From a virus: DNA of 64,000 nucleotides. Of this stretch, positions 113 through 63,785 are shown in pieces. Both the position numbers and the translations under genes were made by a program. Location of the stretch: the IMG/VR virus record IMGVR_UViG_3300034200_001536, positions 1-64,000 of that record; one strand, 5' to 3'. The first letter of the stretch is position 1, and every line of letters begins with the position of its first letter. The notes beneath the pieces were generated by a model. That model made no database searches and was not told where the DNA came from. It saw only the letters and a list, made by a program, of their open reading frames with translations.

Positions 113-113
113 A

Positions 114-10152: not shown

Positions 10153-11958
10153 ATGGCTAAAAAAATAGTACCAATAAACTATACGAGTAGAGATTTTCAA
10201 AGTATTAAAGATGATTTAATACAACATGCGAAAAGGTACTATTCTGACGTATATAAAGATTTTAATCAAGCATCTTTTGGCTCTTTAATGCTTGATACTA
10301 CCGCTTATGTTGGTGATATTTTATCTTTTTATCTTGATTATCAAGCAAACGAAAGCTTTTTGGATACTGCTGCAGAATTTGAAAACATTATTAAACTTGG
10401 CAGACAAGTAGGATATAAATTCGCCAATACTAACTCATCTACTGGAATTGTTACCTTTTTCATCTCTGTTCCAGCAAGTACAAGTGGTTTAGGACCAAAT
10501 ATGGATTATGCGCCAGTGTTAAAAAAGGGAAGTTCTTTTTCTACTAAATCTGGCACAAGATTCATCTTAAATGAAGATGTTAGATTTGATGACCCAAGAA
10601 ATGAAATAAGAGTAAGTTTAGCTGACCCAGATAATGGGTTTCCATTATATTATGCAATTAAAGCACAAGGAACGGTAGTTTCTGGAATTATATCTTCAGA
10701 AAGAGTTTCTGTTGGAGATTATAAAAGATATCAAAAATTTACCCTTTCTCAATTAGATATTATTGAAATTTTATCTATCTATGATTTAGAGGGTAATCAA
10801 TATTTTGAAGTAGATAATTTATCACAAAATATAATTTATAGGTCTGTAACAAATAGAGATTTAAATGACGCTGCTTTAGCAAGAGAAGTATTAAAGCCAA
10901 TCATGGTGCCAAGAAGATTCGTTGTCGATAGAAACCTAAGAACCACCAGTATTCAATTTGGTGCCAGTTCTGATGTTATATTAAACGATAGTGATAGTAT
11001 GGTTGCAGAACCAACAAACGTAGTATTAAATATGTTTGGTAAAGATTATATTTCAAGTGATTATTTTGACCCAACTAAACTTTTAAACAGCGATAAAATG
11101 GGTGTTGCGCCTTCTAATACAGAATTAATTGTTACATATCGCTATAATAACACTAATCAAACAGTTAATTTTGCCACTAATACTCTTGTTAAGGTTGTAG
11201 CTCCAATATTTGAATTTCCTACAGAAGTTGGCTTAAGCAATACGGCGTTAAGTTTAGTAAAATCTAGTTTAGAAATCACCAATGAAGTACCTTTATTGGG
11301 AGATACTACAGTTATTGATTCTGAAGAATTAAAAAAGAGAATAGAAAATTCTTTCTCTACTCAAGGTCGTGCTGTAACAGAACAAGATTATAAATCTTTA
11401 ATTTATTCCATGCCAAACAAATATGGCTCTGTTAAGCGTGTTGCTATAATGCGTGACAGTAATTCGTTAAAAAGAAATTTAAATCTTTATATTTTGTGTG
11501 AAGGGGCAGACGGCTTCTTAACGACGGGTAATCAAACAGTAAAAAGTAATATTAAAAATTGGCTTTTAAGAAATAAAATGATTAATGATTCTATCGATAT
11601 TTTAGATGGCAAAGTGGTAAATTATGGAATTACGTTTACCGCTATTGGTTCAAACGATAAATCTAAATACGATACACTAAGTGATGCTATTAACCAATTA
11701 AAAGCTGATTTTTCGATGTTATCTGATTTTGGTGAAACATTAAATATTACAGATGTCTATAATTCTTTAAAAAAAGTAAGTGGAATTATCGACGTTGTAT
11801 CTGTTTCAATAGACGAAAAAATTGGCGGCGTTTATTCCGATTCTCAGTTTAGTTTTAAAGCCAATACCTCTAGCGATGGAAGATATATTAACGTTCCTGC
11901 AAACGTAGTAATGGAATTAAAATATCCAAATAGTGACATAAAAGGAACCATTCTCTAA
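10153..11958 (+). CDS. gp6: baseplate wedge subunit (T4 gp6 / baseplate J-like)
   Basis: NYTSRDFQSIK, AYVGDILSFYLDYQANESFL and QGRAVTEQDY motifs; follows gp25. Confidence 0.9.
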   Translation: MAKKIVPINYTSRDFQSIKDDLIQHAKRYYSDVYKDFNQASFGSLMLDTTAYVGDILSFYLDYQANESFLDTAAEFENIIKLGRQVGYKFANTNSSTGIVTFFISVPASTSGLGPNMDYAPVLKKGSSFSTKSGTRFILNEDVRFDDPRNEIRVSLADPDNGFPLYYAIKAQGTVVSGIISSERVSVGDYKRYQKFTLSQLDIIEILSIYDLEGNQYFEVDNLSQNIIYRSVTNRDLNDAALAREVLKPIMVPRRFVVDRNLRTTSIQFGASSDVILNDSDSMVAEPTNVVLNMFGKDYISSDYFDPTKLLNSDKMGVAPSNTELIVTYRYNNTNQTVNFATNTLVKVVAPIFEFPTEVGLSNTALSLVKSSLEITNEVPLLGDTTVIDSEELKKRIENSFSTQGRAVTEQDYKSLIYSMPNKYGSVKRVAIMRDSNSLKRNLNLYILCEGADGFLTTGNQTVKSNIKNWLLRNKMINDSIDILDGKVVNYGITFTAIGSNDKSKYDTLSDAINQLKADFSMLSDFGETLNITDVYNSLKKVSGIIDVVSVSIDEKIGGVYSDSQFSFKANTSSDGRYINVPANVVMELKYPNSDIKGTIL

Positions 11959-13388
11959 TGTCTATTAAAAGATTTATAGCCGAAAAAGATACTACCATTA
12001 CAGATGCCTATAAGGAAAATTTAGTAAGTCGTGGTATTAATGCAAATATGGGCGCAGCTGATTCTTTAGAAGTTTTTTCTATTTATGCACAAGCTAGTAC
12101 GTCATCTTTAGAAAAGAGCAGAATTCTAGTTCAATTCCCAATAAATGATATATCTGCCAGTAGAGCCACTGGAAAAATACCTACCAGCGGAAATGTAGAT
12201 TTTTATTTAAGACTTTATAACGTTGTGCATCCTTTTAGTGTACCAAGGAATTTTTCTATGACCATTAATCCTTTATCTAGGTCTTGGGATGAGGGCTATG
12301 GCTTAGACATGGAAGGCTATACAGATAATGGCTTTATATCCGGTACTGGCGGTATCGGTGTTACTTGGGTTTCTCCAACTAGTGGCGTTTATTGGGATTC
12401 ACAAGGAGGGGATTATTATACCGGCTCTGGCTATGATTTAACAGCTAGTTTTATATCTGGATTAGAAAACATAGAATTAAACATTACCTCTTTAGCCGAA
12501 CAGTGGATAACTGGTGCAATACCAAATTATGGCTTATTAATTAAACTTTCTTCTTCTTATGAAAACGGCAGCAACTTACAGAGCTTTTATACTAAAAAGT
12601 TTTCTGCAAGAGGTTCACAATATTATTTTAGTAGACCTTGTATTGAAGCACGTTGGAATCCATCGGTTACAGATGATAGAAACAATTTTTATGCATCAAG
12701 TAACCTTTTAAATACTGCCGATAACACAATGAATCTTTATTTTTATAATAAAGTCGGAGGGGCTTTAAAAAATATATTTGGTAATCCTATTCCAAATGTT
12801 TTGTTTTATTCTGATTCTAACTTTTCAAGTTCTGTATCGGCTTCTTATGTTTCTGTTTCTAATCCTATTCCCGGCGTTTATAAGGCGCAAGTTATTTTAG
12901 ATACAACTGCTAGTGTTTTATATGATAAATGGGTGAATGCTCTTACATCTTCAACAAAATATTTTTCTAGTTCCTTTGATGTATATCAAAGGGAAAACGA
13001 TACGGTAAGTAATTTACCAGAATACGTTATAAATATAACGAATATGAAGCCTTCATATAATCAAAACGAACAAGCTAGATTTAACATTTTTGTTCGTGAA
13101 AGAGATTGGCAGCCAAATATTTATACAGTTGCCTATAATAATGTAGAAAATACAGCAATTCCTAATTTATATTACAAAATATTTAGATTTAATGATAATT
13201 ATACTGTAGTAGATTACTCCACAGGTTCTTTAGCTTATACTAAAACATCATACGATTCAAATGGAAATTATTTTGAATTAGACATGAATATTCTTGAAAA
13301 AGATTATGGATATGGTATAAAATTAGCGTTGTGGGATGGTAACTTATTACAAGAATTTAAAGATGTATATAAATTTAGGATTAACTAA
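11958..13388 (+). CDS. virion structural protein, DNRLRE/carbohydrate-binding-like domain
   Basis: SRILVQF, SWDEGYG, WDSQGGDY, PNYGLLIK pattern; TAATG coupling to gp6. Confidence 0.6.
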   Translation: MSIKRFIAEKDTTITDAYKENLVSRGINANMGAADSLEVFSIYAQASTSSLEKSRILVQFPINDISASRATGKIPTSGNVDFYLRLYNVVHPFSVPRNFSMTINPLSRSWDEGYGLDMEGYTDNGFISGTGGIGVTWVSPTSGVYWDSQGGDYYTGSGYDLTASFISGLENIELNITSLAEQWITGAIPNYGLLIKLSSSYENGSNLQSFYTKKFSARGSQYYFSRPCIEARWNPSVTDDRNNFYASSNLLNTADNTMNLYFYNKVGGALKNIFGNPIPNVLFYSDSNFSSSVSASYVSVSNPIPGVYKAQVILDTTASVLYDKWVNALTSSTKYFSSSFDVYQRENDTVSNLPEYVINITNMKPSYNQNEQARFNIFVRERDWQPNIYTVAYNNVENTAIPNLYYKIFRFNDNYTVVDYSTGSLAYTKTSYDSNGNYFELDMNILEKDYGYGIKLALWDGNLLQEFKDVYKFRIN

Positions 13389-13390
13389 AT

Positions 13391-21990: not shown

Positions 21991-22932
21991 ATGTCTTTTT
22001 TTGATGATAAACAGGAAATTATTAAATTAGAATTAACCACTTATGGTAGATTTCTTCTATCAAGAGGTAAATTCAAGCCTGTTTATTATGCTTTTTATGA
22101 TGATGATGTTATATATGACTCTTTATACGGTAGTCTTTCTGAATCGCAAAATAGCATTCAAGATAGAGTATTTGATGAAACGCCTTCTTTAAAGCCACAA
22201 ACGACATATACAAGTATTGAAGATAGTGTAAAATTAAATAAATTAGTTTTAAGAGAGATAGATAAATTAAAAGAAGAAGAGTCACAAATTAGTGCAGATA
22301 AGAATTATGCTCTTTCTTTACCATTAGCTAATTCTTCATTAAGTTCTGATTACAGTCCCGCTTGGTCATTGTCCCTTATAAGCGGCTCTATTTCTTCTTC
22401 ACAGCCTTATATAGACAATAGCGATGGTTTATCAGGAAGTTTACAGCCTTACTTAAAAGTACCACAAATAAATCTTATTGATAATGTATATGACATAAAG
22501 ACTAAAAAAAATGAGTTTTCTTTAGATAATGGTTATGAATTTGTTACTGTTGAAGTATCTGGAAATGACCAATATGTATATTCAATGAAAAATAGTAATA
22601 TAATACTAAGTCTTTTAGAGGCAAATGTTGATAATCTAACTAAGAATTTTGATATAGAAGTTTTTGTTGAAGAAGAAGAAAAAATATTAGGTCGTGATGA
22701 AACAAAAAAAACCTTAAAACAGTTGAATTTTAAAAAAGATTCCGTATCTATCGTCAACAATATTTTATTAGACACTCCTATTACATTTGAAATACAAGAA
22801 GACGAAAATTATGTTGAATATTATTTTGAATTAACAATTGACGATGAAATAGAATTGCCACCACAACAAAATATTTCTACAAACACCTATCAATCAAATG
22901 TTAAGGGTGGTCCATTTGGAGTAGATTGCTAA
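21991..22932 (+). CDS. putative baseplate/tail-collar protein (paralogue of 28047)
   Basis: LELTTYGRFLLSRG..YYAFYDDDVIY parallels VLTDTGRMRLAKG..KFALGDDEIDY. Confidence 0.55.
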   Translation: MSFFDDKQEIIKLELTTYGRFLLSRGKFKPVYYAFYDDDVIYDSLYGSLSESQNSIQDRVFDETPSLKPQTTYTSIEDSVKLNKLVLREIDKLKEEESQISADKNYALSLPLANSSLSSDYSPAWSLSLISGSISSSQPYIDNSDGLSGSLQPYLKVPQINLIDNVYDIKTKKNEFSLDNGYEFVTVEVSGNDQYVYSMKNSNIILSLLEANVDNLTKNFDIEVFVEEEEKILGRDETKKTLKQLNFKKDSVSIVNNILLDTPITFEIQEDENYVEYYFELTIDDEIELPPQQNISTNTYQSNVKGGPFGVDC

Positions 22933-30396: not shown

Positions 30397-30870
30397 ATGG
30401 CTATTCAAAGCATGATTATAAAAGATGGAGCAGGCAACACTAAATCCTTAACGGTAGAAAGTTCCAGTTATGGCTTTATACCATTTCATCAAATAACCTC
30501 TTCTGTTGCTGCGCCGGTTTATGTAACAGAAACGCCAGTAACCACTGTAGCACAAAGCGCCGTTACTACTTTTAACTATGGAACATCCGCTAGCGGAACA
30601 TTTTCAATAGCCAATAATAGCACCACAAGAAAAGGTTTAACTGTTTTCAATCCCGGTCCAAGTAATTTGTATCTAGCTTTGTCAACTGCCGGTGGAACAA
30701 CTAACGGCTTTACACTTACTAATACTGCCAGTGCTCCTACACTATATTCTTTTATTATTTATCCTTCTGGCACGTATACAGCCGATTCTACAACTGCTGG
30801 TGTTTATCACGGTGGTTATTTTATTAGCGGTTCAACGTCTGCAGGCGTCTTTATTTCTGCTATAAGCTAG
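30397..30870 (+). CDS. Ser/Thr-rich virion protein
   Basis: AAGGA RBS; RKGLTVFNPGPSNLYL beta-sandwich-like segment. Confidence 0.65.
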   Translation: MAIQSMIIKDGAGNTKSLTVESSSYGFIPFHQITSSVAAPVYVTETPVTTVAQSAVTTFNYGTSASGTFSIANNSTTRKGLTVFNPGPSNLYLALSTAGGTTNGFTLTNTASAPTLYSFIIYPSGTYTADSTTAGVYHGGYFISGSTSAGVFISAIS

Positions 30871-34028: not shown

Positions 34029-35759
34029 ATGGCTAATCCATTAAAGATTTTAACAGTTTTGACAGCATCACAAGCTGCAAAATTTGAACAAGGTTTAAGT
34101 GTTAACTCACAAAAAATCACTAACGTTGCTGATGCAACAGTTGCAACCGATGCAGTAGCATACGGTCAATTAACTGCAGTATCAGGCGCAATGAAGAGCT
34201 ATGTAGACGCTCAAGATACAGCACTCTCTGGTGCATTTGACGCCCGCATGGTAGCATTAAGTGGCGCCGCCGCAACAGCATTAGTAGCAGAAGCAGCAGC
34301 ACGTGTTGCAGGCGATGCAGCAGTATCAGGTGCATTAAAAACCTACGTTGATGGCAAAGACACTGCACAAACATTAGCACGCGATGCACTTTCTGGTGCA
34401 TTAAAATCTTATGTAGACGCTGCAGATGGCGTATTACAAGGTAACTTGAACACTGTTTCAGGTGCAATCAAGTCTTACGTTGACGCAGCTGACACAGTAT
34501 TAGACGGCAGAATCACCAGCGTTTCTGGTGCAATTGTTGCTTATGTCGATGCAGAAAATGCTGCACAAGACGCTGCAGTAGCAGCAATGTCTGGTGCTAT
34601 GAAGTCATACATTGATGCACAAAACTCTGCACAAGATACAGCAGTAGGCAATCTTTCAGGTGCTTTGAAATCATATGTAGACGCAGCAGATTTAGTATTA
34701 GATGGTAGAATCACAAGTGTTTCTGGCGCAATTAAGACATATGTTGACGCACAAGACTTAGTATTATCTGGCGCATTCGATACACGCTTAACCCGCAATG
34801 AAACAGCATTTGGTACATTGGTAAGCAGCTCATTACCAGCAATGTCTGCTTCTATCTCAGGCACTATCTTAGCAGAAAAGACCCGTGCACTAGCAGCAGA
34901 AGCAGTATTATCTGGTAACTTGGCAGCAGAAGTTAGCCGTGCAACTGCAGCAGAAGGTGTTCTACAAACCAACATTGACGCAGAAGCAACAGTACGCGCA
35001 GCAGCAGATGCCACATTGCAAAGCAACATCACCGCAGAAGCAAACACACGTTCTGCAGCAGATGCAGCATTAAGCAGCAGCCTTGCAGGTGAAATCAGCC
35101 GTGCATTAGCAGCAGAAGCAGTATTGTCTGGTAACTTAGCAGCAGAAATTAGCCGTGCAACCGCTGCAGAAGGCACACTCCAAAGCAACATTGACGTAGA
35201 AAAGGGTCGCATTGACGCTATCCTCTCTGCTTCAAACGCTAATTACGATACCTTCAAGGAAGTAGTTGATTTAATCAACAGCGTTGATACAACAAACGAC
35301 AGCGCATTCGCAGGTTACGTAATAAGCAACGATGCTGCTATTGCCACTCTTTCAGGCGCATTAAACACAAAGATTGACAATGAAGTAACACGTGCAACTG
35401 CTGCAGAAGCAGTATTGTCTGGTGGTTTAGCACAAGAAGTCAGTGACCGTGCAGCAGCAGTAGCAGCAATGAAGACAGCATACAGTGCAGCACGTTTCGT
35501 ACAAACTGGCTCATTAGTATCTGGCGCAGTAGTTGTTTCCTTCGCAGCTGAAGGTGCAATGTTCGCTGTAGCAGAAATGGGCAACATCGCATTAGACGTA
35601 ATGGTTGATGCAGATGGCTCAGGCTATACCAACGACTTGGTAGCAGTTAAGATGTTCTCTGATGGCGGCGTATTGAAAGTACAAATCGACGCTCCAGCAA
35701 CACCAAGCGCAGGCTATCGCTTAATCGCTGTAAATGAAAAGAAGGGCGGTTTGAACTAA
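34029..35759 (+). CDS. long trimeric coiled-coil fibre (whisker/collar-like)
   Basis: YadA-neck-like KITNVADATVATDAVAYGQL; 22-aa and 18-aa repeats; DTFKEVVDLI; shared C-terminal module. Confidence 0.75.
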   Translation: MANPLKILTVLTASQAAKFEQGLSVNSQKITNVADATVATDAVAYGQLTAVSGAMKSYVDAQDTALSGAFDARMVALSGAAATALVAEAAARVAGDAAVSGALKTYVDGKDTAQTLARDALSGALKSYVDAADGVLQGNLNTVSGAIKSYVDAADTVLDGRITSVSGAIVAYVDAENAAQDAAVAAMSGAMKSYIDAQNSAQDTAVGNLSGALKSYVDAADLVLDGRITSVSGAIKTYVDAQDLVLSGAFDTRLTRNETAFGTLVSSSLPAMSASISGTILAEKTRALAAEAVLSGNLAAEVSRATAAEGVLQTNIDAEATVRAAADATLQSNITAEANTRSAADAALSSSLAGEISRALAAEAVLSGNLAAEISRATAAEGTLQSNIDVEKGRIDAILSASNANYDTFKEVVDLINSVDTTNDSAFAGYVISNDAAIATLSGALNTKIDNEVTRATAAEAVLSGGLAQEVSDRAAAVAAMKTAYSAARFVQTGSLVSGAVVVSFAAEGAMFAVAEMGNIALDVMVDADGSGYTNDLVAVKMFSDGGVLKVQIDAPATPSAGYRLIAVNEKKGGLN

Positions 35760-35761
35760 TA

Positions 35762-35819
35762 TAATCTAGTTGAAAAATTAGATTAGGGAAGGGAGGCAGA
35801 AATGCCTCCCTTCTTTTTT
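35762..35819 (+). terminator. intrinsic terminator preceded by a second hairpin
   Basis: GAAGGGAGGCA-GAAA-TGCCTCCCTTC-T6; upstream TAATCTAGTT-GAAA-AATTAGATTA. Confidence 0.9.
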
Positions 35820-35830
35820 AACGTTAAAAA

Positions 35831-35909
35831 ACTAATTATTAAAGAGGTCTAGTTTGTATTTTAGACTTCTATTTTTTTATCTGCTCTGACGAGCAAGGAA
35901 AGTATTACA
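35831..35909 (+). promoter_or_regulatory. late promoter plus structured leader (hairpin, T7, RBS hairpin)
   Basis: ACTAATTAT; AGAGGTCTA/TAGACTTCT stem; T7; GCTC/GAGC stem; AAGGA. Confidence 0.65.
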
Positions 35910-36428
35910 ATGGCTAATGAAAGACCATTAAAAATTTTAACAGATTTAGTAGTTGAACAAGATATTACAGTTAGCGGTTCTACTGTAGTTTCAGGCTCAG
36001 AATATTTACATACAACTGCTTCTTTTACAAATGTAAATGTAAATAAAAGCGCTGATGGCATGTACGATGTTGATACAGCTATTCATGCTTTAGACACAGC
36101 TATTGGCACACTAGAAAATAGCGTTAAAAATGCTTATGAAAACTTAAGATTGGTAGTTACAGGTACTTTAGATGGTAATGGCAATAAGAAAATTAACTTA
36201 ACTTCTACTGCCGTTTCAGGTTCAACTTATTTTAATACTAGTTCTTTAAAGCTAGTTGACGTATCGGTTTTGTTAGCCGGTGAAGATTTAGTATATAAAA
36301 ATGATTTAGTTTCAGTTCAATTATATAATTCTGCTAGTGCTTTATGGGTTGAAGTTGATGCTCCAGCTTCACCAAATGCAAACTATCGTTTAATTGTCTC
36401 TAATAACGATTTATTACCGTTGGTATAG
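35910..36428 (+). CDS. short fibre-family paralogue
   Basis: PLKILTDL N-terminus; YKNDLVSVQL..VEVDAPA..YRLI module. Confidence 0.75.
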   Translation: MANERPLKILTDLVVEQDITVSGSTVVSGSEYLHTTASFTNVNVNKSADGMYDVDTAIHALDTAIGTLENSVKNAYENLRLVVTGTLDGNGNKKINLTSTAVSGSTYFNTSSLKLVDVSVLLAGEDLVYKNDLVSVQLYNSASALWVEVDAPASPNANYRLIVSNNDLLPLV

Positions 36429-36442
36429 GGGGTATTTAAATC

Positions 36443-38068
36443 ATGGCTAATAAAATAAAAGTTTTATCTAACTTAACAGCAAGTCAAGATATTATTGTAA
36501 AAGGAAATACAGTAACATCTGGTTCAAAACAATTATCAACCGATACAGCATTTAATAATGCTGTTGTGGCTACTTCTTCAGATGGCATGTATAATGTAGA
36601 TGAAGCTATTCATGCAATTGATACAGGTTTAACAACATTAAAAAATGATATAAAAAATGCTTATAATCTTGTAAGAGCGGTATTAACAGGAACACTAGAG
36701 TCTAACGGTAATAAAAAAATTAATTTAACTACCACTATTGTTTCTGGTTCGTTATATTTTAATACTTCTTCTTTAACTCGCATCGAAGCATCACTATTTA
36801 TTGATGAAAATGGTGATTCGACATATAAAAATGATTTAGCGTCATTACAGCTATATAATTCTGCAAGTTATCTTTGGGTAGAAATAGACGCTCCAGCTGC
36901 CACTAATGATGCGTATAGTTTGATTTTAAAAAATCAATTTTTATTACCATTAGCTGGTAGCGATGGCATTGGAAATGGAAATAATAATGGCGGCGGCGGT
37001 GGAGGTGGTGGAAACCAATATATGCTCACCCCATATAACACAAATCCAACTGGTAGTATAAGTGGCTCTATATCTGGCACTAGAGAAGGATATTATGTAT
37101 TCCCAGATGTTTATGGTAATGTAAAATTTACATTTAATGATTTTTCTTCTTCCGCTGATAATTCAGGAATTACATTCTATGTAATGCCAAATAATTATTC
37201 TGGTAGTTTAACTTACAGCCCAACTACTAATTTAATTAATACTACTGGCGTTGGAAAAATAGTTACTTTACAAGGTCCAAATTTAGCAAATCTCAGTTTA
37301 TCCGGTAATGGTATAAGTGGCGTTAGTGCTGGCTATCCAAGCGATTATACAAGAGATATATATAACAATAATCTCAACACTAACATGCATGTACACGATG
37401 GAGTTGTAGATTTTACTATTCCGGTGGGCACTGGTTCGGCTGTTTATGTTGATATAGTAGGCCCTGTAGCTTACGATATAAACTGGACAGGCGGTGCGTA
37501 TTATAATCCTTCAGCGGAACAAATAACTTTTGTACCAACAAATATAGGTGGCTATTATGTACCGCCTATAAATGATTTTAATACAAACTATAAAGATACT
37601 TATATTTCCGCTTCTGGTACTCCAACTAGAATATATATTCCACTAATAAATTCTGATGGTACCTATAAGCCTACTTTAACACCAGTAAGCGTAGAAACAC
37701 CAACTGGCTTATATGTAAGAATTAATAGTTATATTCATAGTTTGAGATTCTTCTCAGCTTATAATCCAACAGCAAATATTAATGATTTTGCTCCCGGTGT
37801 TAATGCTCTAGGAGAACCGACTGTTCCCGGTGTCGGCTTTAATGAATATGGTAATTTTGATTCTATGAGTTTTATTAATTACATGAGTGTATATTCTTTT
37901 GACGACTCAATGTTTTATACTCCACAATCTCCATATCCAATAGTAATTTTTGTACCTTCTCGTAACGGAGTTGCTAAATTATGGATTGTAAGTTATCCAC
38001 AAACAAATCCGCCACCACAATCGGGTTATACTAACGGAATAGGTAATATAGAGGTCTGGACGGCATAA
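36443..38068 (+). CDS. fibre-family paralogue with poly-Gly linker and unique C-terminal domain
   Basis: First ~170 aa closely match 35910; GNGNNNGGGGGGG linker; Y/P/G/T-rich C-terminal domain. Confidence 0.75.
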   Translation: MANKIKVLSNLTASQDIIVKGNTVTSGSKQLSTDTAFNNAVVATSSDGMYNVDEAIHAIDTGLTTLKNDIKNAYNLVRAVLTGTLESNGNKKINLTTTIVSGSLYFNTSSLTRIEASLFIDENGDSTYKNDLASLQLYNSASYLWVEIDAPAATNDAYSLILKNQFLLPLAGSDGIGNGNNNGGGGGGGGNQYMLTPYNTNPTGSISGSISGTREGYYVFPDVYGNVKFTFNDFSSSADNSGITFYVMPNNYSGSLTYSPTTNLINTTGVGKIVTLQGPNLANLSLSGNGISGVSAGYPSDYTRDIYNNNLNTNMHVHDGVVDFTIPVGTGSAVYVDIVGPVAYDINWTGGAYYNPSAEQITFVPTNIGGYYVPPINDFNTNYKDTYISASGTPTRIYIPLINSDGTYKPTLTPVSVETPTGLYVRINSYIHSLRFFSAYNPTANINDFAPGVNALGEPTVPGVGFNEYGNFDSMSFINYMSVYSFDDSMFYTPQSPYPIVIFVPSRNGVAKLWIVSYPQTNPPPQSGYTNGIGNIEVWTA

Positions 38069-38122
38069 AGTTTAATTTAAACTTTGGTTTGGGTGGCAGA
38101 AGTTTTGCCACCCTTTCTTTTT
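38067..38122 (+). terminator. intrinsic terminator preceded by an AT-rich hairpin
   Basis: GGGTGGCA-gaagttt-TGCCACCC-TTTCTTTTT; upstream AAAGTTTA/TAAACTTT. Confidence 0.85.
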
Positions 38123-38128
38123 AAAAAA

Positions 38129-38137
38129 ACTATTTAT
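38129..38137 (+). promoter_or_regulatory. putative late promoter ACTATTTAT (near-leaderless mRNA)
   Basis: Motif 7 nt upstream of ATG 38145. Confidence 0.6.
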
Positions 38138-38144
38138 TATTACT

Positions 38145-38348
38145 ATGAAACGTAAAATAACTTATCTTATTAAGGACTTTGACAAAATAATGCGTGAAAT
38201 ATTACCACATACTGGCGATTTTCGCAAAGAAGTTATGTTGCTAAAACGTAAAGAAGAATTTGAAGAAATAATAGATAAAATGGCAGAAAAATACGATAAA
38301 ATAATAGAATTAATAGAACAAGAAAAGGAACTACCAGATGAAGTATAA
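38145..38348 (+). CDS. small hypothetical protein
   Basis: 67-aa charged ORF after a promoter motif. Confidence 0.65.
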   Translation: MKRKITYLIKDFDKIMREILPHTGDFRKEVMLLKRKEEFEEIIDKMAEKYDKIIELIEQEKELPDEV

Positions 38349-38592
38349 GTTTTCTTTTATACAAGTAACTAACTGGCTAATGATTTGTCGTGAAAATTTG
38401 ATGAAAATACGCGAAGAAGCAAACGAAGGTTTTGAAGATAAGCAAATTGTTATAGAAAAATTAAAAAAACAAAAACGAGATTTATTGTTAGTAAAAGATA
38501 TTCTAAACAGAAAAATTAGATTACATGGAATAAGCCCAGATTTTTTAAAGAATTTTAAACAAATTAAGAAAGAATATGGAATAAGCGATTAG
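38338..38592 (+). CDS. small hypothetical protein
   Basis: 84-aa ORF overlapping the previous stop; AAGGA RBS. Confidence 0.65.
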   Translation: MKYKFSFIQVTNWLMICRENLMKIREEANEGFEDKQIVIEKLKKQKRDLLLVKDILNRKIRLHGISPDFLKNFKQIKKEYGISD

Positions 38593-38604
38593 GGATAAAA
38601 CAAA

Positions 38605-39717
38605 ATGGCAGTTAAGCCAGCAAAAGCGATTGCGGATTTATTAGCAAGAAAGCAGATATTAAAAGTAGATAAAGATAATAATATACTTTTTAAAGTATCT
38701 GGCTCTTTAGAATCAGGTGCTGTTAGTTCCTCATTGCCAATTACTGCTTCTAGTTATTTTTCTGCTTTTGATTCAATTATTTCTGGCACTTTAACAACAA
38801 AAAATCTATTAATCACCGATGACAAAAGTTATGTAAATATTAATCAATTAAGTAATGTATCGGCTTCTAATGCACAAGAAGGCGAGTATTTAGTATTTAG
38901 TGGTTCTAATTGGGTTCCTTCTAGCGTTCGTGGCGTTGGTATTACAAAAGAAACCTATAATCGTCTTCGCTATACCGTTTCTGGTACATTCAATGGAACT
39001 GATACCGTTGAAATACCGCTACCGCTTTCTTCCTCTATAAGAGGACCGGCATTTACAATTGATTCTGTTAATCAAATAAATTTTACTTTATTAATTCAAG
39101 AATCTACAGCATCTAATTGGAAAAATGACTTAGCTTCAGTAGAATTCAAAGTATCGGGTTCAGAGCCGCAAATATTTGCTGTTATATCCGCACCTTCTAA
39201 TCCATACGCTTATAGTTTTAACGCAGTTAATATGAACCCAGCTGCTGTTAATGCTTCAATTATGATGGGAGAATATACAACTCTTGTCGTAGAAAATGAT
39301 GCGTACATATCCGGTAACACGTATATAAGTGCTTCATCCCAATTATCTAATATTGGCAATGTCAATTTATTATCTGGTAGCTTTTATAATGTTGATAACG
39401 TTTTTACTTCAATAGATTCAAGATTTGCACAGATGGTAACAAATTATAATTCTTTAAGAGAAGTACAGATAGGAAATTTTGAATCCGATGGAAGCAAAAC
39501 TATACAATTAACTAATTTTGTTAGTGCAGATATAGATTATTTGAGTTTAGATGTGATGATTAAATACAGCGGCAGTACACAGTATTTAAATGATTTAATA
39601 AGTGTAAGAATGTCTGGGGCTTTAAATAATAAAATCAACGTTGAAATCAGTGCTCCTAGTGTAAGTAGTGGAGATTTTTACAGAATTATTGCTGTAAAAG
39701 AGTCGGGAAGTTTATAA
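38605..39717 (+). CDS. fibre-family paralogue with two copies of the shared module
   Basis: MAVKPAKAIADL; WKNDLASVEF..ISAP and YLNDLISVRM..EISAP..YRIIAV. Confidence 0.75.
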   Translation: MAVKPAKAIADLLARKQILKVDKDNNILFKVSGSLESGAVSSSLPITASSYFSAFDSIISGTLTTKNLLITDDKSYVNINQLSNVSASNAQEGEYLVFSGSNWVPSSVRGVGITKETYNRLRYTVSGTFNGTDTVEIPLPLSSSIRGPAFTIDSVNQINFTLLIQESTASNWKNDLASVEFKVSGSEPQIFAVISAPSNPYAYSFNAVNMNPAAVNASIMMGEYTTLVVENDAYISGNTYISASSQLSNIGNVNLLSGSFYNVDNVFTSIDSRFAQMVTNYNSLREVQIGNFESDGSKTIQLTNFVSADIDYLSLDVMIKYSGSTQYLNDLISVRMSGALNNKINVEISAPSVSSGDFYRIIAVKESGSL

Positions 39718-39721
39718 AGAC

Positions 39722-39730
39722 ACTATTTAT
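39722..39730 (+). promoter_or_regulatory. putative late promoter ACTATTTAT
   Basis: Recurrent motif; AAGGAG RBS downstream. Confidence 0.65.
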
Positions 39731-39754
39731 TAAAAACTATAAGGAGAAATTTCA

Positions 39755-40852
39755 ATGGCAGTTAAACCGTTTAAGATTTTAGCAGATTTGCAATCTAATA
39801 AGCAAATCATAAAATTAGATTCAGCAGCAAATAATGCAGTATTATTTAATGTTTCTGGAACATTAGCTGGTGGTGGTCACGTTAGTTCTTCATTGCCATA
39901 TACTGGTTCTGGATTGTATATTGATGGTAATGCAGTAATAGCTGGAAAATTAACCGCTAGAGAATATCATGCTGAAGTAGTTTCCTCTTCGATTATTTAT
40001 CAAAGTGGTTCAACTAAATTTGGTGATAGTGCAGATGATTTGCACCAATTTACTGGCAGTGTACAAATTAGTGGCGGCTTTGGCGCACATTACTTAACTG
40101 CTTCATTAGGTTTATTGTCTAACGGCCCAAGCACATTAGTCGGTACTGTAAACGCACAAAATGGACTAACAATAACCAACGCTCCTTTAGACGCTAGTAC
40201 GGTAGCAGTAAGCGCTAGTGGCTTAAACGTAACAAATGCTGCAGTTGTTGGTTCTACATTAGCTGCATTAGGAGGTTTAACTTCTTCCGCTGGCTTAAGC
40301 GTTGCTGGTACTGCTAGCGTAGTTGGTCCTATTATTTCTAACACATCAGTTCTTACACCTTTATTGGGAGCTACTAATGCTGGTTTAGTAACAGCTTCTG
40401 TAGCAACAACTGCTAGCTTTAATGCAATTGCAATTGTAACAGCTTCTCAAACTGTTAATGGTGTTTCATATGACATGTATAATGTTGACCAAGCATTCCA
40501 TGCAATTGATTCTGCCATGGCAGATAAAACAGCTACACAAAATGCTTACAAACGTTTACGTTATCAAACAAGCGGCTCATTTGACCCAAGTGGCGTACAG
40601 CTAGTTGCACTCCCTACATCTTCACTAGGAGGTGATTCCTTCCCAGTTAGCTCTATCGGTTACATTACCGTAGACGTTTTAACAAAATTTGATATAAATG
40701 ATAATTGGATGAACGATGTTATGGCTATTGAAGTATATGTAACTGGTTCTCCCGGTTCAGAATATATCGAGGTAGCCATCAATGCCGCTGATGTACCACA
40801 TGAATATCGTTTAATAGCAGTTAATGAAGACCCAACTAAATATGTGGTATAA
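39755..40852 (+). CDS. fibre-family paralogue
   Basis: MAVKPFKILADL; SGSTKFGDSADDLHQFTGS; WMNDVMAIEV..YRLIAVNE. Confidence 0.75.
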   Translation: MAVKPFKILADLQSNKQIIKLDSAANNAVLFNVSGTLAGGGHVSSSLPYTGSGLYIDGNAVIAGKLTAREYHAEVVSSSIIYQSGSTKFGDSADDLHQFTGSVQISGGFGAHYLTASLGLLSNGPSTLVGTVNAQNGLTITNAPLDASTVAVSASGLNVTNAAVVGSTLAALGGLTSSAGLSVAGTASVVGPIISNTSVLTPLLGATNAGLVTASVATTASFNAIAIVTASQTVNGVSYDMYNVDQAFHAIDSAMADKTATQNAYKRLRYQTSGSFDPSGVQLVALPTSSLGGDSFPVSSIGYITVDVLTKFDINDNWMNDVMAIEVYVTGSPGSEYIEVAINAADVPHEYRLIAVNEDPTKYVV

Positions 40853-56427: not shown

Positions 56428-58293
56428 ATGAGTACCCTTATAGATTGCGCTGATACTTTAAATTGTGCTACGTTATCCGGAAGCGATAACGTTAATGTTG
56501 CTTTTCAGGCAGGCGTTCCAAATAAAATTGTTGTTTCTTTATCACAATCAGTTGTTGGATTATCTAAATTAGAAGTTACCGGAAATGCGATTATATCTAA
56601 TAATAGTTCTAATGCGGCACTCCGTATAACACAAACAGGAGCCGGCGAAGCCATACGTGTTGAAGATAGTGCTAATCCCGATAGCACACCATTTGTTGTA
56701 AGTTCCGTTGGTAATGTTGGTATTGGTACATCATCTCCAAGTGAAAAACTAGAGGTTAGCAATCCAACGGACTATTGTGCAATTCGCGTATCAGCAAACC
56801 CAACTGTCAACACGGCTAATGAAGCACAAGTTCATCTTAATAGTGGCTTAAACGGTTATACAAGACTTTTTTATCGTGAATCAGATAAAGCTTTTGGTAT
56901 TTACCATAGTGGTACCGCAGGTCCAGCAACAAAGTTCCGTATTAATGACAGTGGTATGTCGCTTATGGAAGGAGGCGGAAATGTTGGTGTTGGTGTTCAA
57001 TCACCGGCACAAAAATTAGATATTCGTGGTGGGACAGAAGTAAATGCTCAAGTGTATGCTGATAGTGCTGGTGCAACAAGAGCAGATTTGCGTTTACGTG
57101 TTAATAATACCACTGGTGACAACTATATTACTTTTGGTGATTCAACTGCTTTTGATGTAGGAAGAATACAATATAATCATAATTCTGATTATATGGCCTT
57201 TTATGTTAATTCATCAGAAGATATGAGAATTACATCAAATGGGAATGTTGGTATTGGAACAGCTACTCCTCAAAGCATACTACACATAGAAGCAAATGGT
57301 TATACAAATCAAACTATAAGAAGTGCAGGTGCCTTCGCTGGTTCATATATATTAGCTCAACGGTCTAAGGGCACTTTAGAATCTAAAACCGCTTTAGGAA
57401 TCGATGATTACGCTGGTGGTTTGTTGTTTTCTGGATATGATGGAACTAATTTTATAAATCTTGCCGGTGTGTATGGAATAGTTAATGGAACTCCCGGCAC
57501 TAATGATATGCCGGGTGCTTTAGCATTTTCTACTACAGCCGATGGAAGTAGTACGATTACTGAAAGAATGAGAATTGACAATACGGGTAGTGTTGGTATT
57601 GGAACTGCAACCCCATCCACGAAGTTGCATGTTAGAGGCGATGTATCTGTTGAAGACACAAATCCAACTGTATCTTTTAAAAACACTTCTGGTAATCAAA
57701 TAGGCTCTTTGGCGCACAATGGCTCTGGTGGCCGTATGGATTTAATAAATGAAGAAGCTAATTTATTAAGACTTGGAACTAACGGAGGGCCATTAGTATA
57801 TATTGCTTCTTCTAACGTTGGTATAAATATTGATACGCCAACTCAAACATTAGATATTAATGGAACTTTAAGAATTAGAAACTTAGTAGCAGGTACCAAT
57901 ACTGCTCCCGGTAGAGCGGCCACTGGTGAAATAACAGCTTTAAGTTCCGATAAAAGATTAAAAAAAGATATTTCAATTCTTTCTGATTCTCTTAATAAAG
58001 TTAAAAATTTAAGAGGTGTTACATTTAAATGGGATAAAACAAATGAACCTGACTTCATTATCGACGATTCAGAAAAAGAAAAAGAACAAATTGGTTTAAT
58101 AGCGCAAGAAGTGGAAGCAGTATATCCACAATTAGTTTATTTAAATGGCGTTAAAGATTATAAAGGTGTAAGATACCCAGAACTTACTGCTGTATTAATT
58201 GAGGCTGTTAAAGAATTATCGTCACTTAACGATGAATTAAAACAAAAATTAGATGATGTAATGACAAGAATATCTGCTTTAGAAAATAAATAG
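56428..58293 (+). CDS. fibre protein with C-terminal intramolecular chaperone (peptidase S74)
   Basis: Repeated GNVGIGTxxP..KL units; SSDKRLKKDI, GVTFKW, IGLIAQEVE, LIEAVKEL. Confidence 0.88.
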   Translation: MSTLIDCADTLNCATLSGSDNVNVAFQAGVPNKIVVSLSQSVVGLSKLEVTGNAIISNNSSNAALRITQTGAGEAIRVEDSANPDSTPFVVSSVGNVGIGTSSPSEKLEVSNPTDYCAIRVSANPTVNTANEAQVHLNSGLNGYTRLFYRESDKAFGIYHSGTAGPATKFRINDSGMSLMEGGGNVGVGVQSPAQKLDIRGGTEVNAQVYADSAGATRADLRLRVNNTTGDNYITFGDSTAFDVGRIQYNHNSDYMAFYVNSSEDMRITSNGNVGIGTATPQSILHIEANGYTNQTIRSAGAFAGSYILAQRSKGTLESKTALGIDDYAGGLLFSGYDGTNFINLAGVYGIVNGTPGTNDMPGALAFSTTADGSSTITERMRIDNTGSVGIGTATPSTKLHVRGDVSVEDTNPTVSFKNTSGNQIGSLAHNGSGGRMDLINEEANLLRLGTNGGPLVYIASSNVGINIDTPTQTLDINGTLRIRNLVAGTNTAPGRAATGEITALSSDKRLKKDISILSDSLNKVKNLRGVTFKWDKTNEPDFIIDDSEKEKEQIGLIAQEVEAVYPQLVYLNGVKDYKGVRYPELTAVLIEAVKELSSLNDELKQKLDDVMTRISALENK

Positions 58294-59199: not shown

Positions 59200-59225
59200 C
59201 TTTTTCCTGCATACAGGAGATATTC

Positions 59226-60575: not shown

Positions 60576-60595
60576 CTATCTTAAGGAGATATAAA

Positions 60596-62365
60596 ATGAG
60601 TAACATCTTGGAACGCCTCACAGAAGGCGTAGTAGAAAAAAACATGTTAAATGAAACAAAGGCAGTAGTAGGTAAGTGGGAAAAGTCTGGTCTTTTGGAA
60701 GGTTTAAAGACAGACCGTGAACGCAGCACCATGGCAGTATTATTAGAAAACCAAGCAAAAGAACTTCTCCGCGAATCAACCACAATGGCAGGAGGTGATG
60801 TTCAAGGTTTCGCAGCTGTAGCTTTCCCAATCGTACGCAGAGTATTCGCTGGCTTAATTGCTAACGACCTCGTATCTGTACAACCAATGAGCTTACCAAG
60901 CGGTCTTGTATTCTTCATGGATTTCCGTCGTGGTACAAACATTGGTAGCACTGGTGACACCGTATTCGCAGTATCTTCTTCACTATTCGGCGACCGTCTT
61001 GGTGTACAAATCACTGGCGGCGTTCGTGTAGACGGCGTAGATAATGCTGAAAAGGGTTTCTACAATCTTGCTAACGGCTATAACACATCACGCTACAGCA
61101 GCGGTGTAGCAACTGGTAGCGTAACATTACAAGCTGGTCCAATGAACTTGCAAGACGCTGGCGCAAACGCTTCAGCCACTGACTTGTCAGCTATTCGCTA
61201 TGATGCGGATTTATTATCCGACCCAGCATACGTATCAGCTTCCGTACTTAAGATTCCACTTGCTAGCTTGGATTATGGCACTCTATTAGCAGTACAAGAC
61301 GTATTTGCTACATCACTTGTAACAAGCAGCGCAGACGTAAACGCAGCTGGTGATTATACAGGCGGCGGCGCATTAGGTGCCGGTGCAAAAGTTATTCGTC
61401 GTTTGAGCAGCATCTCTGGTTCACACTTGTTATTAGCTGTAGCTACACCAAGCACAAGTCCAACAGTAGCAAACTTGTTCTCTGGTGCTAACTTTGCAGT
61501 TGTAACATATCCAATCAAGGATAATCTCACCAACGTAGGTACCGACGCTCTTGGTGCATTAGCCGGTGCAACACCTTGGACATTTGAAGGTTCTACTGCA
61601 ATTCCAGAAATCGAATTGAAGGTAGACAGCTTCTCCATCACTGCTCGCACACGTAAGCTCAAGGCTCAATGGACCCCAGAATTAGGTCAAGACTTGAACG
61701 CTTACCACAACTTGGACGCAGAAGTAGAATTAACCTCCATGTTATCTGAACAAATCGGTCTTGAAATCGACCAAGAAATTCTTAACGACTTAGTTAAGGG
61801 TGCAACAGCAGGTACCAAATATTGGAGCCGTCGTCCCGGTAAGTTCGTAAACCGTGCAACTGGCGCAGAAATCAATGCTGGTTCTCCAACATCACCACCA
61901 GACTTCACTGGTAACGTAAGCATGTGGTACGAAACACTCGTTGAAACAATCAACGATGTATCTGCCAACATTCACCGTAAGACATTACGCGGTGGTGCAA
62001 ACTTCCTCGTATGCTCACCAGAAGTTGCAAACATTCTTGAATTCACCAGCGGTTTCCGTGCATCTGTAACAAACGATGCAGAAAAGGGCACCGTAGGCGC
62101 AGTCAAGGTTGGCGATATGAACAAGAAGTGGGACGTTATCGTTCACCCATACTTCCTCCGTAACGTAATTCTCGTTGGCCGTAAGGGTGGCAGCTTCTTA
62201 GAAAGCGGTTACGTATATGCACCATACGTACCACTACAATCCACACCAACCATCTTCTCACCAACCGACTTTACACCACGTAAGGCTGTAATGACCCGTT
62301 ATGGTAAGGCAATGGTTCGTCCAGACATGTACGGTCTTGTAGTAGTAGAAGACCTCTTGGGCTAA
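60596..62365 (+). CDS. gp23: major capsid protein (T4 gp23-like)
   Basis: LLENQ, AFPIVRRVF, VSVQPMSLPSGLVF, TRKLKAQWTPELGQDLNAYH, YAPYVPL, MTRYG. Confidence 0.97.
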   Translation: MSNILERLTEGVVEKNMLNETKAVVGKWEKSGLLEGLKTDRERSTMAVLLENQAKELLRESTTMAGGDVQGFAAVAFPIVRRVFAGLIANDLVSVQPMSLPSGLVFFMDFRRGTNIGSTGDTVFAVSSSLFGDRLGVQITGGVRVDGVDNAEKGFYNLANGYNTSRYSSGVATGSVTLQAGPMNLQDAGANASATDLSAIRYDADLLSDPAYVSASVLKIPLASLDYGTLLAVQDVFATSLVTSSADVNAAGDYTGGGALGAGAKVIRRLSSISGSHLLLAVATPSTSPTVANLFSGANFAVVTYPIKDNLTNVGTDALGALAGATPWTFEGSTAIPEIELKVDSFSITARTRKLKAQWTPELGQDLNAYHNLDAEVELTSMLSEQIGLEIDQEILNDLVKGATAGTKYWSRRPGKFVNRATGAEINAGSPTSPPDFTGNVSMWYETLVETINDVSANIHRKTLRGGANFLVCSPEVANILEFTSGFRASVTNDAEKGTVGAVKVGDMNKKWDVIVHPYFLRNVILVGRKGGSFLESGYVYAPYVPLQSTPTIFSPTDFTPRKAVMTRYGKAMVRPDMYGLVVVEDLLG

Positions 62366-62373
62366 TAATTAAA

Positions 62374-62420: not shown

Positions 62421-62446
62421 ATTTGTGAAGAAAGAAGATAATTACA

Positions 62447-62455
62447 ACTAATTAC
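62447..62455 (+). promoter_or_regulatory. putative late promoter ACTAATTAC
   Basis: Recurrent motif after the terminator; GAGGA RBS downstream. Confidence 0.6.
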
Positions 62456-62480
62456 TATACTATTTCCCGAGGAATAAAAG

Positions 62481-63785
62481 ATGGCACTTCCTAATTTTTC
62501 GCCTGCTTCGCAAATGAGTAAGGTGATATTACCACCAACTGGCAATGTCGCTAATGTAACTGTTACTAGTTTACCATTTGGTGTTTATGTATCAACAAAT
62601 TATTGGACAAATGAACAAATATCTTCTTATAAATCAGGTTCCGTAGAAGAAGTGGCGTTTGTTTATAAAAAGTTAGGCGGTGACGTAGTAGATATTGAAT
62701 TAGTTGAAACACAAGTTCATGCTGCTTATGAAGAAGCTTGTTTAGAATATTCATATCTTATCAATTTACATCAAGCAAAGAATGCTTTGCCATTTATTCT
62801 TGGACAAGATACAGGTTCGTTTAATAACGACGGACAATTAACGGGCAGCAATAGTGGAAGTTTATTAAATGCTAATCTTGCATTTCCAAAAATGCAATTT
62901 GTATATGCTAAAAACATTGGTATGGCAGTTAATACCTTAGTAGGCTTAAATGGTAATGAACCAATCTATTCTTCTTCTTTTAATATGGTTCCCGGTCAGC
63001 AAGATTATGATTTACAAGCAGCTGCTTCTGCTTCTGCCTTATCGGGCGGATGGGATTTAAACGATAAGCGCATTAATATACAAAAAGTTTATTATAAAAC
63101 CGCTGGTGCATCATGGAATTTTTATGGCTATTTCGGCGGTCTTAACGTTGTAGGTAACTTGTCAACATACGGTCAATATGCAGATGATAGCACATTTGAA
63201 ATTATTCCTGCATGGCAAAATAAATTACAAGCAATGGCGTATGAAGATGCAATTAAAACCCGTGTAAGCGATTGGTCATTCCAGATTCGTAATAACATGT
63301 TGAGAATATTTCCAGTTCCTAACGCATCTTCACCAGAAAAGTTTTGGTTTGATTTTACTGTTAGTTCAAATGCTTGGGAACAAACACCACAAACAGTGGG
63401 TATTAGCGGCTCTACAGCCCCAGCAGAAAGTGGAATCAATGGTATTAATAATATGAACACAATACCATTTCAAAACTTACCATATGATAAAATAAATAGC
63501 ATTGGTAAACAATGGATTCGTCGTTTTGCTTTAGCTTTATGCAAAGAAATGCTTGGTCAAATTCGTAGTAAGTGGGATAAAATTCCTATTCCCGGTGATT
63601 CAGTCGTTTTAAATGGCGATAAATTAATCAGTGAAGGTAAAGAAGAACAAGATAAACTTCGTGAAGAATTGAAAACACAACTTGCAGACATGACATATGT
63701 TAAGTTGGGAGAAGATAGCGCTAAAACAATGGAAGATGCTTCAAAAACACAAGCATATGTTCCAAATCTTATCTTTGTTGGTTAG
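62481..63785 (+). CDS. gp13: neck / head-tail adaptor protein (T4 gp13-like)
   Basis: KKLGGDVVDIEL...EEACLEY and WIRRFALALCKEMLGQIRSK..IPIPG..LNG. Confidence 0.8.
   Translation: MALPNFSPASQMSKVILPPTGNVANVTVTSLPFGVYVSTNYWTNEQISSYKSGSVEEVAFVYKKLGGDVVDIELVETQVHAAYEEACLEYSYLINLHQAKNALPFILGQDTGSFNNDGQLTGSNSGSLLNANLAFPKMQFVYAKNIGMAVNTLVGLNGNEPIYSSSFNMVPGQQDYDLQAAASASALSGGWDLNDKRINIQKVYYKTAGASWNFYGYFGGLNVVGNLSTYGQYADDSTFEIIPAWQNKLQAMAYEDAIKTRVSDWSFQIRNNMLRIFPVPNASSPEKFWFDFTVSSNAWEQTPQTVGISGSTAPAESGINGINNMNTIPFQNLPYDKINSIGKQWIRRFALALCKEMLGQIRSKWDKIPIPGDSVVLNGDKLISEGKEEQDKLREELKTQLADMTYVKLGEDSAKTMEDASKTQAYVPNLIFVG

Follow-up and report, generated by a model that had tools for sequence, protein, structure and literature searches.

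A recurrent Ser/Thr-Gly motif in the virion proteins of a marine T4-like phage and its candidate link to a variable glycan island

The structural genes in a stretch of viral DNA raise the question of why a short Ser/Thr-containing motif recurs so densely in unrelated virion proteins. The stretch, referred to here as the window, comprises the first 64 kb of a linear 103,214-bp IMG/VR virus contig (record IMGVR_UViG_3300034200_001536) with an estimated completeness of 57%, in which every gene lies on one strand and the G+C content is about 32%. The phage belongs to a marine clade of T4-like myoviruses. Its motif excess is genuine, arises at the protein level, is specific to Ser/Thr, is restricted to virion proteins, and is kept in the lineage while individual sites turn over. 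Close relatives harbor an island of sugar genes upstream of the tail module. It is tentatively proposed, from sequence, that the motif may mark acceptor loops for O-glycosylation of virion proteins by the phage's own enzymes, a possibility that falls somewhat short of an even chance.

The motif excess in virion proteins

Two forms of the motif were tested: a degenerate form, [VILMFYA][ST][GAS][SATNG], and a strict core, φ-[ST]-G-[ST], in which φ is a hydrophobic residue. The expectation for each protein was derived from 500 composition shuffles, and the pooled test was also carried out with shuffles inside 20-residue blocks. The motif-rich window proteins together contain 178 degenerate matches versus 63 (whole-protein shuffles) or 74 (block shuffles) expected, corresponding to z values of 14–15, and all remaining window proteins contain 34 versus 38. 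The strict core is found 47 times versus 7.8 expected, a 6-fold excess.

The enrichment noted in a preliminary description of the window thus clearly withstands composition shuffling, and it proves both stronger and more specific than described there. Among the proteins listed there, those at 11958, 13391, 29022, 30915, and 34029–40852, the major capsid protein, and the protein at 62481 are enriched (genes are named by their start positions; Table 1), while those at 30397 (3 versus 3.9) and 56018 (3 versus 2.3) drop out once composition is controlled. The proteins described as motif-poor, i.e., primase, the Mre11-Rad50 fusion, TerL, the gp20 portal, and 59226, do have observed/expected ratios at or below 1, as does the prohead protease; the protein at 26000, also described as motif-rare, is weakly above expectation (4 versus 1.8). 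Ten of the 15 capsid sites lie at residues 115–300, the central insertion in which they had been placed. The attribution of the motif to outer virion proteins in general was too broad, given that the T4-like tail fiber 56428 has no excess.

The residue preferences are specific. An unbiased k-mer scan returns SG as the top dipeptide (104 versus 52 expected) and SGS (32 versus 5.8), SSS, ISG, TGS, VSG, SGA, and LSG as the top tripeptides. Residue order matters such that φ-[ST]-[GAS]-x is enriched and φ-[GAS]-[ST]-x is not (72 versus 64–74). The positional profile runs from I/V/L to S (more than T), then G (more than S or A), S, and finally L/I. Among the dipeptides containing Gly, SG, TG, and GS occur at 1.98, 1.35, and 1.50 times expectation, and NG, DG, and AG at 0.95, 0.96, and 0.82; taken on either side of Gly, the residues N, D, A, and P range from 0.7 to 1.05. 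The dipeptides SK, SD, and SE are depleted in the motif-rich proteins. The Bacteroidota sequon D-[ST]-[AILVMT] is mildly over-represented in the same proteins (48 versus 30.2, z 3.5), an excess that is partly due to the repeats of 34029.

Several other origins of the excess were considered and rejected. A cause at the DNA level is excluded by the Ser codons of the motif, which are a mixture of TCN and AGY (TCT 51% and AGY 24%, versus 36% and 34% overall), and an artefact of whole-protein or local composition by the block shuffles (z 15). Repeats and paralogy explain part of the count only; upon removal of the 34029 tandem repeats and of the shared fiber modules and domains, 139 motifs remain versus 48.1 expected (z 14.7). 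Avoidance of deamidation-prone Asn-Gly and Asp-Gly does not apply, as both dipeptides occur near expectation, and a general clustering of loop-forming residues is not observed, since only Ser and, more weakly, Thr are enriched beside Gly. The motif is not a generic property of myovirus fibers and tails, as judged from T4 and crAss001. In 27 T4 virion and packaging proteins, the motif is present 62 times versus 58.7 expected, with no excess in the fibers; T4 instead favors φ-N/D-G (1.58-fold).

A requirement of the fold can likewise be dismissed by comparison with relatives. The nearest relatives of the capsid protein are found in Flavobacterium phage immuto (49.6% identity), LR756508 (an uncultured 484-kb phage), Microcystis phage Mel-JY01, and Rhodothermus phage RM378, in addition to hundreds of uncultured relatives at 55–94% capsid identity. 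T4 gp23 and the LR756508 capsid protein have no motif sites, the immuto capsid protein has 3 versus 3.9 expected, and a full-length LR756508 homologue of 30915 has none. The lack of an excess in non-virion proteins, in T4 virion proteins, and in 56428 is evidence against a generic structural or mutational origin.

In three relatives examined whole (capsid identity 91%, 76%, and 58%), the excess is kept in the same protein families. The homologues of 11958 have 10 versus 2.7 sites in the relative G002 and 11 versus 5.2 in G003, and those of 29022 have 13 versus 4.1 and 14 versus 3.7, respectively; the G002 homologue of 21991 has 0 versus 0.8. The G003 homologue of the giant baseplate protein 13391 is 3674 residues long, is 34% identical, and contains 59 sites versus 23.2 expected, and the two proteins have only 7 of 40 aligned motif sites in common. 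Across 120 capsid homologues, the mean is 9.7 sites versus 4.0 expected, and in the insertion region (48% mean identity) it is 5.9 versus 2.7, spread over 72 alignment columns. In a 43-member alignment of the fiber family, the nearly invariant columns (90% or more) include V31 and S32 from the VSGS near the N-terminus. Density rather than individual sites is maintained across relatives at 33–90% identity, which fits either a shifting selection of the glycan-shield type or a persistent sequence idiom.

Structural models place several of these sites in loops. In the AlphaFold2 model of the capsid protein, the insertion domain is confident (predicted local distance difference test, pLDDT, 80–91 at residues 160–310), and a usable model was also obtained for the fiber 38605. 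Residues 115–300 of the capsid protein presumably correspond to the insertion domain on the outside of the gp23 fold; Foldseek itself gave the gp23-type fold only. In several motifs of the two models, the hydrophobic residue closes a strand and S-G-S forms the next loop, e.g., I273-S-G-S of the capsid protein, between strands E265–274 and E277–284, and F98-SGS and V183-SGS of 38605. The association of the motif with strand ends is suggestive in the 38605 model, where 6 of 15 sites lie at the C-terminal ends of strands (19% background, p 0.05). It is not significant in the capsid protein, and a general strand-end rule was rejected as weakly supported. A fold search with the 38605 model gave no usable match.

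The coiled-coil fiber 34029 presents the motif in tandem. Residues 29–65, at its N-terminus, match PF05662 YadA_stalk (E 3.4e-8, 34.2 bits versus a cutoff of 28.4), a family of trimeric autotransporter adhesins. The repeats have the consensus xDxAxDxxxxAVSGAxKSYVDA, and each contains [VLM]SGA. The preliminary description had seen in the fixed position of SGA a sign of selection on the motif rather than the fold. SGA is indeed fixed in all eight 22-residue repeats; however, the argument is weak because the entire half-repeat AVSGAxKSYVDA is conserved, not SGA alone. After the YadA_stalk part, the repeats show a hendecad-like hydrophobic pattern, in which V(a), A(d), I/L(e), and Y(h) would form the core and the S and G of the motif would occupy the outward b and c positions.

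A glycan island upstream of the tail module in relatives

The relative G002 is collinear with the contig, gene for gene. Window position 22 matches position 33985 of G002, whose glycan island ends at 33566; the start of the present contig thus falls about 0.4 kb beyond the island site, on its downstream side. The G002 island encodes a GDP-mannose 4,6-dehydratase (GMD, E 1.6e-122) and three PF00534 glycosyltransferases, GT4a, GT4b, and GT4c (54.7, 35.3, and 49.3 bits, respectively, versus a cutoff of 26.4). It also encodes a GT8-like protein, an FkbM methyltransferase, a second GMD-family enzyme, a split transketolase, an epimerase/reductase, and a DegT aminotransferase. In the relatives, the island is flanked by a PD-(D/E)XK nuclease gene on one side and by the tail genes on the other, shares their strand, and has hardly any gaps.

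The first gene of the tail module was used to survey 20 IMG/VR relatives. In 15 of them, the upstream DNA is about 9 kb or longer, and 12 of these 15 have homologues of the G002 island there. The remaining three of the 15, loci L117, L119, and L120, were scanned with Pfam together with L115 and four loci with short flanks, and this pooled scan, whose tally is not per locus, returned NeuB, CMP-transferases, UDP-galactopyranose mutase (GLF), RmlC/RmlD, WbqC, APS kinase, PIG-L, UDP-glucose dehydrogenase, and GT2. No GT2 family member is found in the contig or in ten relatives' fragments. The gene content of the island varies between close relatives in the manner of an O-antigen locus.

The closest relative (L105, 92%) has a truncated GMD-family epimerase at its contig start, 1.4 kb upstream of the homologue of 388–1278. 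At least five contigs, the present one included, break 0.4–4 kb upstream of the tail module, which is what an island that varies within the population would cause. PF00534 is detected in 11 of 12 relatives' records; the two records with a completeness of 90% or more are both among these 11.

GT4a and GT4b form the conserved part of the island, with 62–93% identity among close relatives. The order PD-(D/E)XK, GT4a, GT4b is kept in immuto (MW353175, 48.0–51.9 kb), Mel-JY01 (PP395634, 81.4–86.2 kb), and G002 (22.5–26.7 kb), and GT4a is also present in RM378. Among 50,697 phage records, only seven contain GT4a orthologues, i.e., four records of immuto and those of Mel-JY01, LR756508, and RM378. 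These carriers are exactly the nearest capsid relatives, and three of the four phages have a motif excess. Their hosts belong to three phyla (Bacteroidota, Rhodothermus, and cyanobacteria).

The excess was compared across phages as the observed/expected ratio of the strict core in open reading frames (ORFs) rich in small residues. The present contig, in which GT4a is absent and whose relatives have the island, reaches 6.0, and G003, whose contig misses the island site, reaches 4.2. Ratios of 5.2, 4.05 (z 13), 2.7, and 2.2 are obtained for the GT4a carriers G002, immuto, RM378, and Mel-JY01, respectively. For phages without GT4a, the ratios are 1.55 (S-SSM7), 1.8 (Flavobacterium phage 11b, not significant), 1.4 (crAss001, not significant), and 0.78 (T4). 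The richest ORFs of immuto are annotated tail spikes and fibers, including a 1053-residue tail spike with 20 sites versus 2.6 expected.

The machinery of the island appears to be soluble. A hydropathy scan, which is crude and leaves room for substitution by host enzymes, found no ORF with three or more transmembrane segments in the islands, and by the same scan none of them contains a membrane protein of the Wzx flippase, Wzy polymerase, or initiating phosphoglycosyl transferase type. The island would probably be expressed late, together with the tail genes. The late-promoter-like sequence ACTATTTAT is located 30–90 nt upstream of the fiber, sheath, neck, and scaffold-position (59226) genes of the contig, and in G002, ACTATTTAT stands at the head of a continuous run of genes that spans the island and extends to the tape-measure and baseplate genes.

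The contig itself encodes a eukaryotic-type phosphomannomutase of the PMM type (PF03332, E 1.6e-30) at genome positions 91850–92566 (L002:8850-9563). The gene lies in a nucleotide-metabolism block with ribonucleotide reductase, ThyX, and a proteasome-like gene. It is sporadic, being present in G012 and absent from G011, immuto, RM378, and Mel-JY01. A search for GDP-mannose pyrophosphorylase (PF00483) found none.

Competing explanations for the motif

In the proposed mechanism, φ-[ST]-G-[ST] would form acceptor loops for cytoplasmic O-glycosylation of exposed virion proteins. The present phage would carry a glycan island like that of its syntenic relatives. Late in infection, GT4a and GT4b would start the glycan on Ser/Thr residues of folded or folding tail, baseplate, fiber, sheath, and capsid-insertion proteins, using host GDP-mannose and sugars made by the island, and the variable island enzymes would complete a strain-specific glycan coat. 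This glycosylation reading appears to gain real support from a conserved, apparently late, all-soluble glycan system beside the tail genes, and from the restriction of the core enzyme of this system to the clade that shows the motif excess. The best relatives of solved structure offer weak hints to the acceptor. For GT4a, this is B736L of chlorovirus NY-2A, a weak match over the C-terminal half (E 3e-8), and for GT4b, it is the Ser-O-GlcNAc transferase SdgB, a very weak match (E 4e-3). When extended to the whole deep T4-like clade (the marine lineage, immuto, RM378, and Mel-JY01), the proposal becomes more tentative still: strain-variable glycans might be attached to the tails, baseplates, and fibers of these phages and, in the present lineage, to the capsids, at φ-[ST]-G-[ST] beta-turn sequons via GT4a/GT4b, with the hypervariable island setting the "serotype".

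A number of observations weigh against glycosylation, and many of them would be expected if the motif were a lineage-specific structural idiom, an explanation about as likely as glycosylation itself. According to this alternative, φ-S-G-S-φ closes hairpins and arches in all-beta outer proteins, with Ser where T4 uses Asn/Asp, and the island is unrelated, serving late remodeling of host-surface glycans or another acceptor. The small triplet is bordered by hydrophobic residues before and after it, a pattern that suits a beta-strand/turn/beta-strand idiom no less than a sequon, and enrichment is seen for each of the orders HBCD, BCDH, and HDCB. The strand ends followed by S-G-S loops in the models and the T4 preference for φ-N/D-G agree with such an idiom. 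Motif Ser/Thr residues of the capsid insertion are conserved no better than other Ser/Thr residues (0.52 versus 0.48), no site-specific purifying selection on them is seen, and the capsid sites FTGN and FTSG are invariant core positions that are likely structural. Since the degenerate motif is expected about once per 120 residues by chance, many single matches are noise. LR756508, the fifth GT4a carrier, was predicted to have an excess; none is present in its capsid or baseplate homologues. The immuto capsid protein is not enriched despite the island, the exposed tail fiber 56428 lacks the excess, and S-SSM7 and 11b have a milder one without GT4. The co-occurrence of GT4a and the motif effectively amounts to one phylogenetic event.

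The absence of a glycosyltransferase, stated in the preliminary description for the window, extends to the full 103-kb contig (about 57% complete), which contains no island gene either; the search for sugar genes beyond the window yields the phosphomannomutase in the contig and the glycosyltransferase island in relatives. The glycosylation reading is plausible rather than established. The idiom, in turn, has against it that the same folds occur without the motif in T4, LR756508, and the immuto capsid, so that no fold needs it, and that at least eight unrelated families of one lineage converge on it. The turn-forming residues N, D, and P are not enriched beside Gly, where only Ser and, more weakly, Thr are; 56428, a beta fiber of the same genome that is rich in small residues, lacks the motif; and the link to strand ends is weak. 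The O-linked modification code on the virion that the preliminary description had envisaged is supported in part, by the motif excess, the phosphomannomutase of the contig, the island site, and the clade signature of GT4a, and is weakened by LR756508, 56428, and the capsid Ser/Thr conservation.

It is unlikely that the targets of the glycosyltransferases are phage DNA (base hypermodification) or host envelope glycans and that the motif excess follows incidentally from Ser-rich composition, repeats, and paralogy. Such acceptors are suggested by the PD-(D/E)XK nuclease that adjoins GT4a/GT4b in three lineages, namely in Flavobacterium, Microcystis, and marine-lineage phages, and the 34029 repeats and the shared fiber module do supply part of the raw count, yet the excess survives both trimming and block shuffling. 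Glycosylation of phage DNA by glycosyltransferase clusters is known, and the known routes need a base-hydroxylating enzyme (PMC13326640). No ThyA-type hydroxymethylase (PF00303) was found in G011 (96% complete), G012 (92%), G014, G002, RM378, or Mel-JY01 by a search that detected td and gene 42 of T4; TET (PF12851) was not found either, in a search that had no positive control. A core glycosyltransferase common to phages whose hosts span three phyla fits poorly with host-specific envelope glycans and argues for a phage-made acceptor, and the islands lack a membrane protein resembling a flippase, polymerase, or initiating transferase. Still less probable is another trans-acting factor that reads the motif, such as a Ser/Thr kinase, a different modifying enzyme, or an assembly chaperone for fibers and tails that binds φ-S-G-S loops. 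A virion-restricted, hydroxyl-specific, and lineage-specific excess is what any recognition in trans would produce, but Pfam scans of the contig and the islands show no kinase or other candidate enzyme, and no conserved modifying system other than the sugar machinery was found.

Relation to known systems and other features of the contig

Virion glycosylation in phages is already known; the conserved GT4a/GT4b pair and its hypervariable island are new here, even if the motif is structural. Freeman and colleagues (Cell Host Microbe 31:1216, 2023) reportedly described virion glycosylation in mycobacteriophages, with glycans said to have been shown chemically on C-terminal extensions of siphovirus capsid and tail-tube subunits. 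The system proposed here would share with it phage-encoded glycosyltransferases placed next to or among the structural genes (as seen in relatives), capsid and tail proteins as the presumed acceptors, and a cytoplasmic reaction that needs no lipid carrier. In contrast to those siphovirus systems, the present one is that of a T4-like marine myovirus represented by sequence, its island is much larger and hypervariable, and its candidate sites are φ-[ST]-G-[ST] loops dispersed over many proteins.

Chloroviruses and giant viruses glycosylate their capsids autonomously in the cytoplasm by using a viral GDP-mannose 4,6-dehydratase and soluble glycosyltransferases to build atypical glycans (PMC4691112, PMC9614988). 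The island resembles this system in its GMD and its several glycosyltransferases, and B736L, the nearest solved relative of GT4a, is a GDP-mannose-binding enzyme. However, chlorovirus glycans belong to a eukaryotic virus and are N-linked at atypical sequons, and the B736L match is weak. SdgA and SdgB O-glycosylate Ser-Asp repeats (PMC8561734), and flagellin is also glycosylated (PMC7591256), in both cases by soluble, cytoplasmic GT-B enzymes. Common to these systems and the proposed one is the modification of many Ser/Thr residues in repetitive or exposed segments of fibrous proteins prior to export or assembly, with SdgB as the best match of GT4b. Their acceptors, DSD repeats or flagellin sites without a sequon, are different, and the E-value of the SdgB match is high.

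The general O-glycosylation system of Bacteroidota acts in the periplasm on many exported proteins at the sequon D-[ST]-[AILVMT]. It likewise uses a three-residue Ser/Thr sequon, mildly over-represented here, and occurs in the likely host phylum. However, it needs Asp before Ser/Thr, whereas a hydrophobic residue precedes it here and SD, SE, and SK are depleted, so that the motif falls outside that system. Marine T4-like cyanophages carry large, variable clusters of lipopolysaccharide and sugar genes without assigned function; in contrast to the present lineage, cyanophage S-SSM7 has neither GT4a/GT4b nor PF00534, and its motif ratio is low. Literature searches returned no report of virion glycosylation in this phage clade.

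If the glycosylation reading is correct, virion glycosylation would extend beyond actinobacteriophages and giant viruses to abundant marine T4-like phages, and would be accompanied there by a readable acceptor motif and a variable island resembling an O-antigen locus. It would bear on the stability, stickiness, and decay of virions at sea, on their recognition by hosts or grazers, and on why metagenomic assemblies break at the island locus, and it would provide a soluble system for protein O-glycosylation with a short sequon. Immuto and its host Flavobacterium sp. LMO8, both in culture, allow a direct test of the idea.

Table 1. Positions of the features discussed, with motif counts (degenerate form unless stated) as observed versus expected
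Feature	Position	Strand	Identification or note	Motif
Contig 5' end at junction with the relatives' glycan island	1..387	+	G002 alignment	
G002 glycan island	23.3-33.6 kb of G002 = L093:4293-14563		directly upstream of tail module	
gp20 portal, T4-type TerL, prohead protease, primase, Mre11-Rad50 fusion	in window		Pfam	
gp6-like baseplate wedge subunit	10153..11958	+	phrog_6, E 1e-18	0 vs 3.1
Baseplate-module protein, 476 aa (amino acids)	11958..13388	+		11 vs 3.0, p 0.002
Giant baseplate protein, 2865 aa	13391..21988	+		46 vs 15.6, z 8
313-aa protein	21991..22932	+		4 vs 0.9, weak enrichment
Tail-module protein, 371 aa	29022..30137	+		12 vs 4.8
Tail-module protein, 326 aa	30915..31895	+		7 vs 2.1; strict core 4 vs 0.3
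Trimeric-adhesin-like coiled-coil fiber	34029..35759	+	eight 22-aa repeats	26 vs 9.4
Four paralogous fiber genes (35910, 36443, 38605, 39755)	35910..40852	+	all motif-enriched	5 vs 1.35; 13 vs 5.1; 15 vs 4.1; 12 vs 5.4
T4-type distal tail-fiber homologue	56428..58293	+	phrog_9942, E 3.6e-52	5 vs 5.25; SG 7 vs 6
Scaffold-position protein	59226		no Pfam match	
gp23-type major capsid protein	60596..62365	+	homologues with PF07068; Foldseek match to T4 gp23, probability 1.0	15 vs 4.6
Neck/head-tail adaptor-like protein	62481..63785	+	phrog_211	6 vs 2.2, p 0.018
Tail sheath	genome 64423-67113		just beyond window end	14 vs 5.9

PHROGs and Pfam searches of the motif-rich proteins gave almost no matches. 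Toward its N-terminus, the giant protein 13391 has a concanavalin A-like/Laminin_G_3 domain (PF13385, E 3e-9, within window positions 13391–17000). BLAST shows that 29022 and 30915 are paralogous, with a C-terminal domain in common, and that a module of about 100 residues is shared by 35910, 36443, 38605, 39755, and the C-terminus of 34029. The tail-fiber homologue 56428 is encoded among the head genes, with a small protein on one side and the scaffold/capsid genes on the other. Of the virion proteins rich in small residues, it alone has no motif excess, and it may be a recent acquisition, as judged from the missing excess.

Beyond the window, a proteasome-subunit-like protein (PF00227, E 6e-6, above the cutoff) is encoded at genome positions 91288–91839 (L002:8288-8836), and a weak, below-cutoff match to Cpn10 is found near the phosphomannomutase at 90379–90657 (L002:7379-7654). 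The protein at 95031–96185 (L002:12031-13182) harbors three putative metal-binding motifs of the MopE type (PF11617) as well as a von Willebrand A domain.

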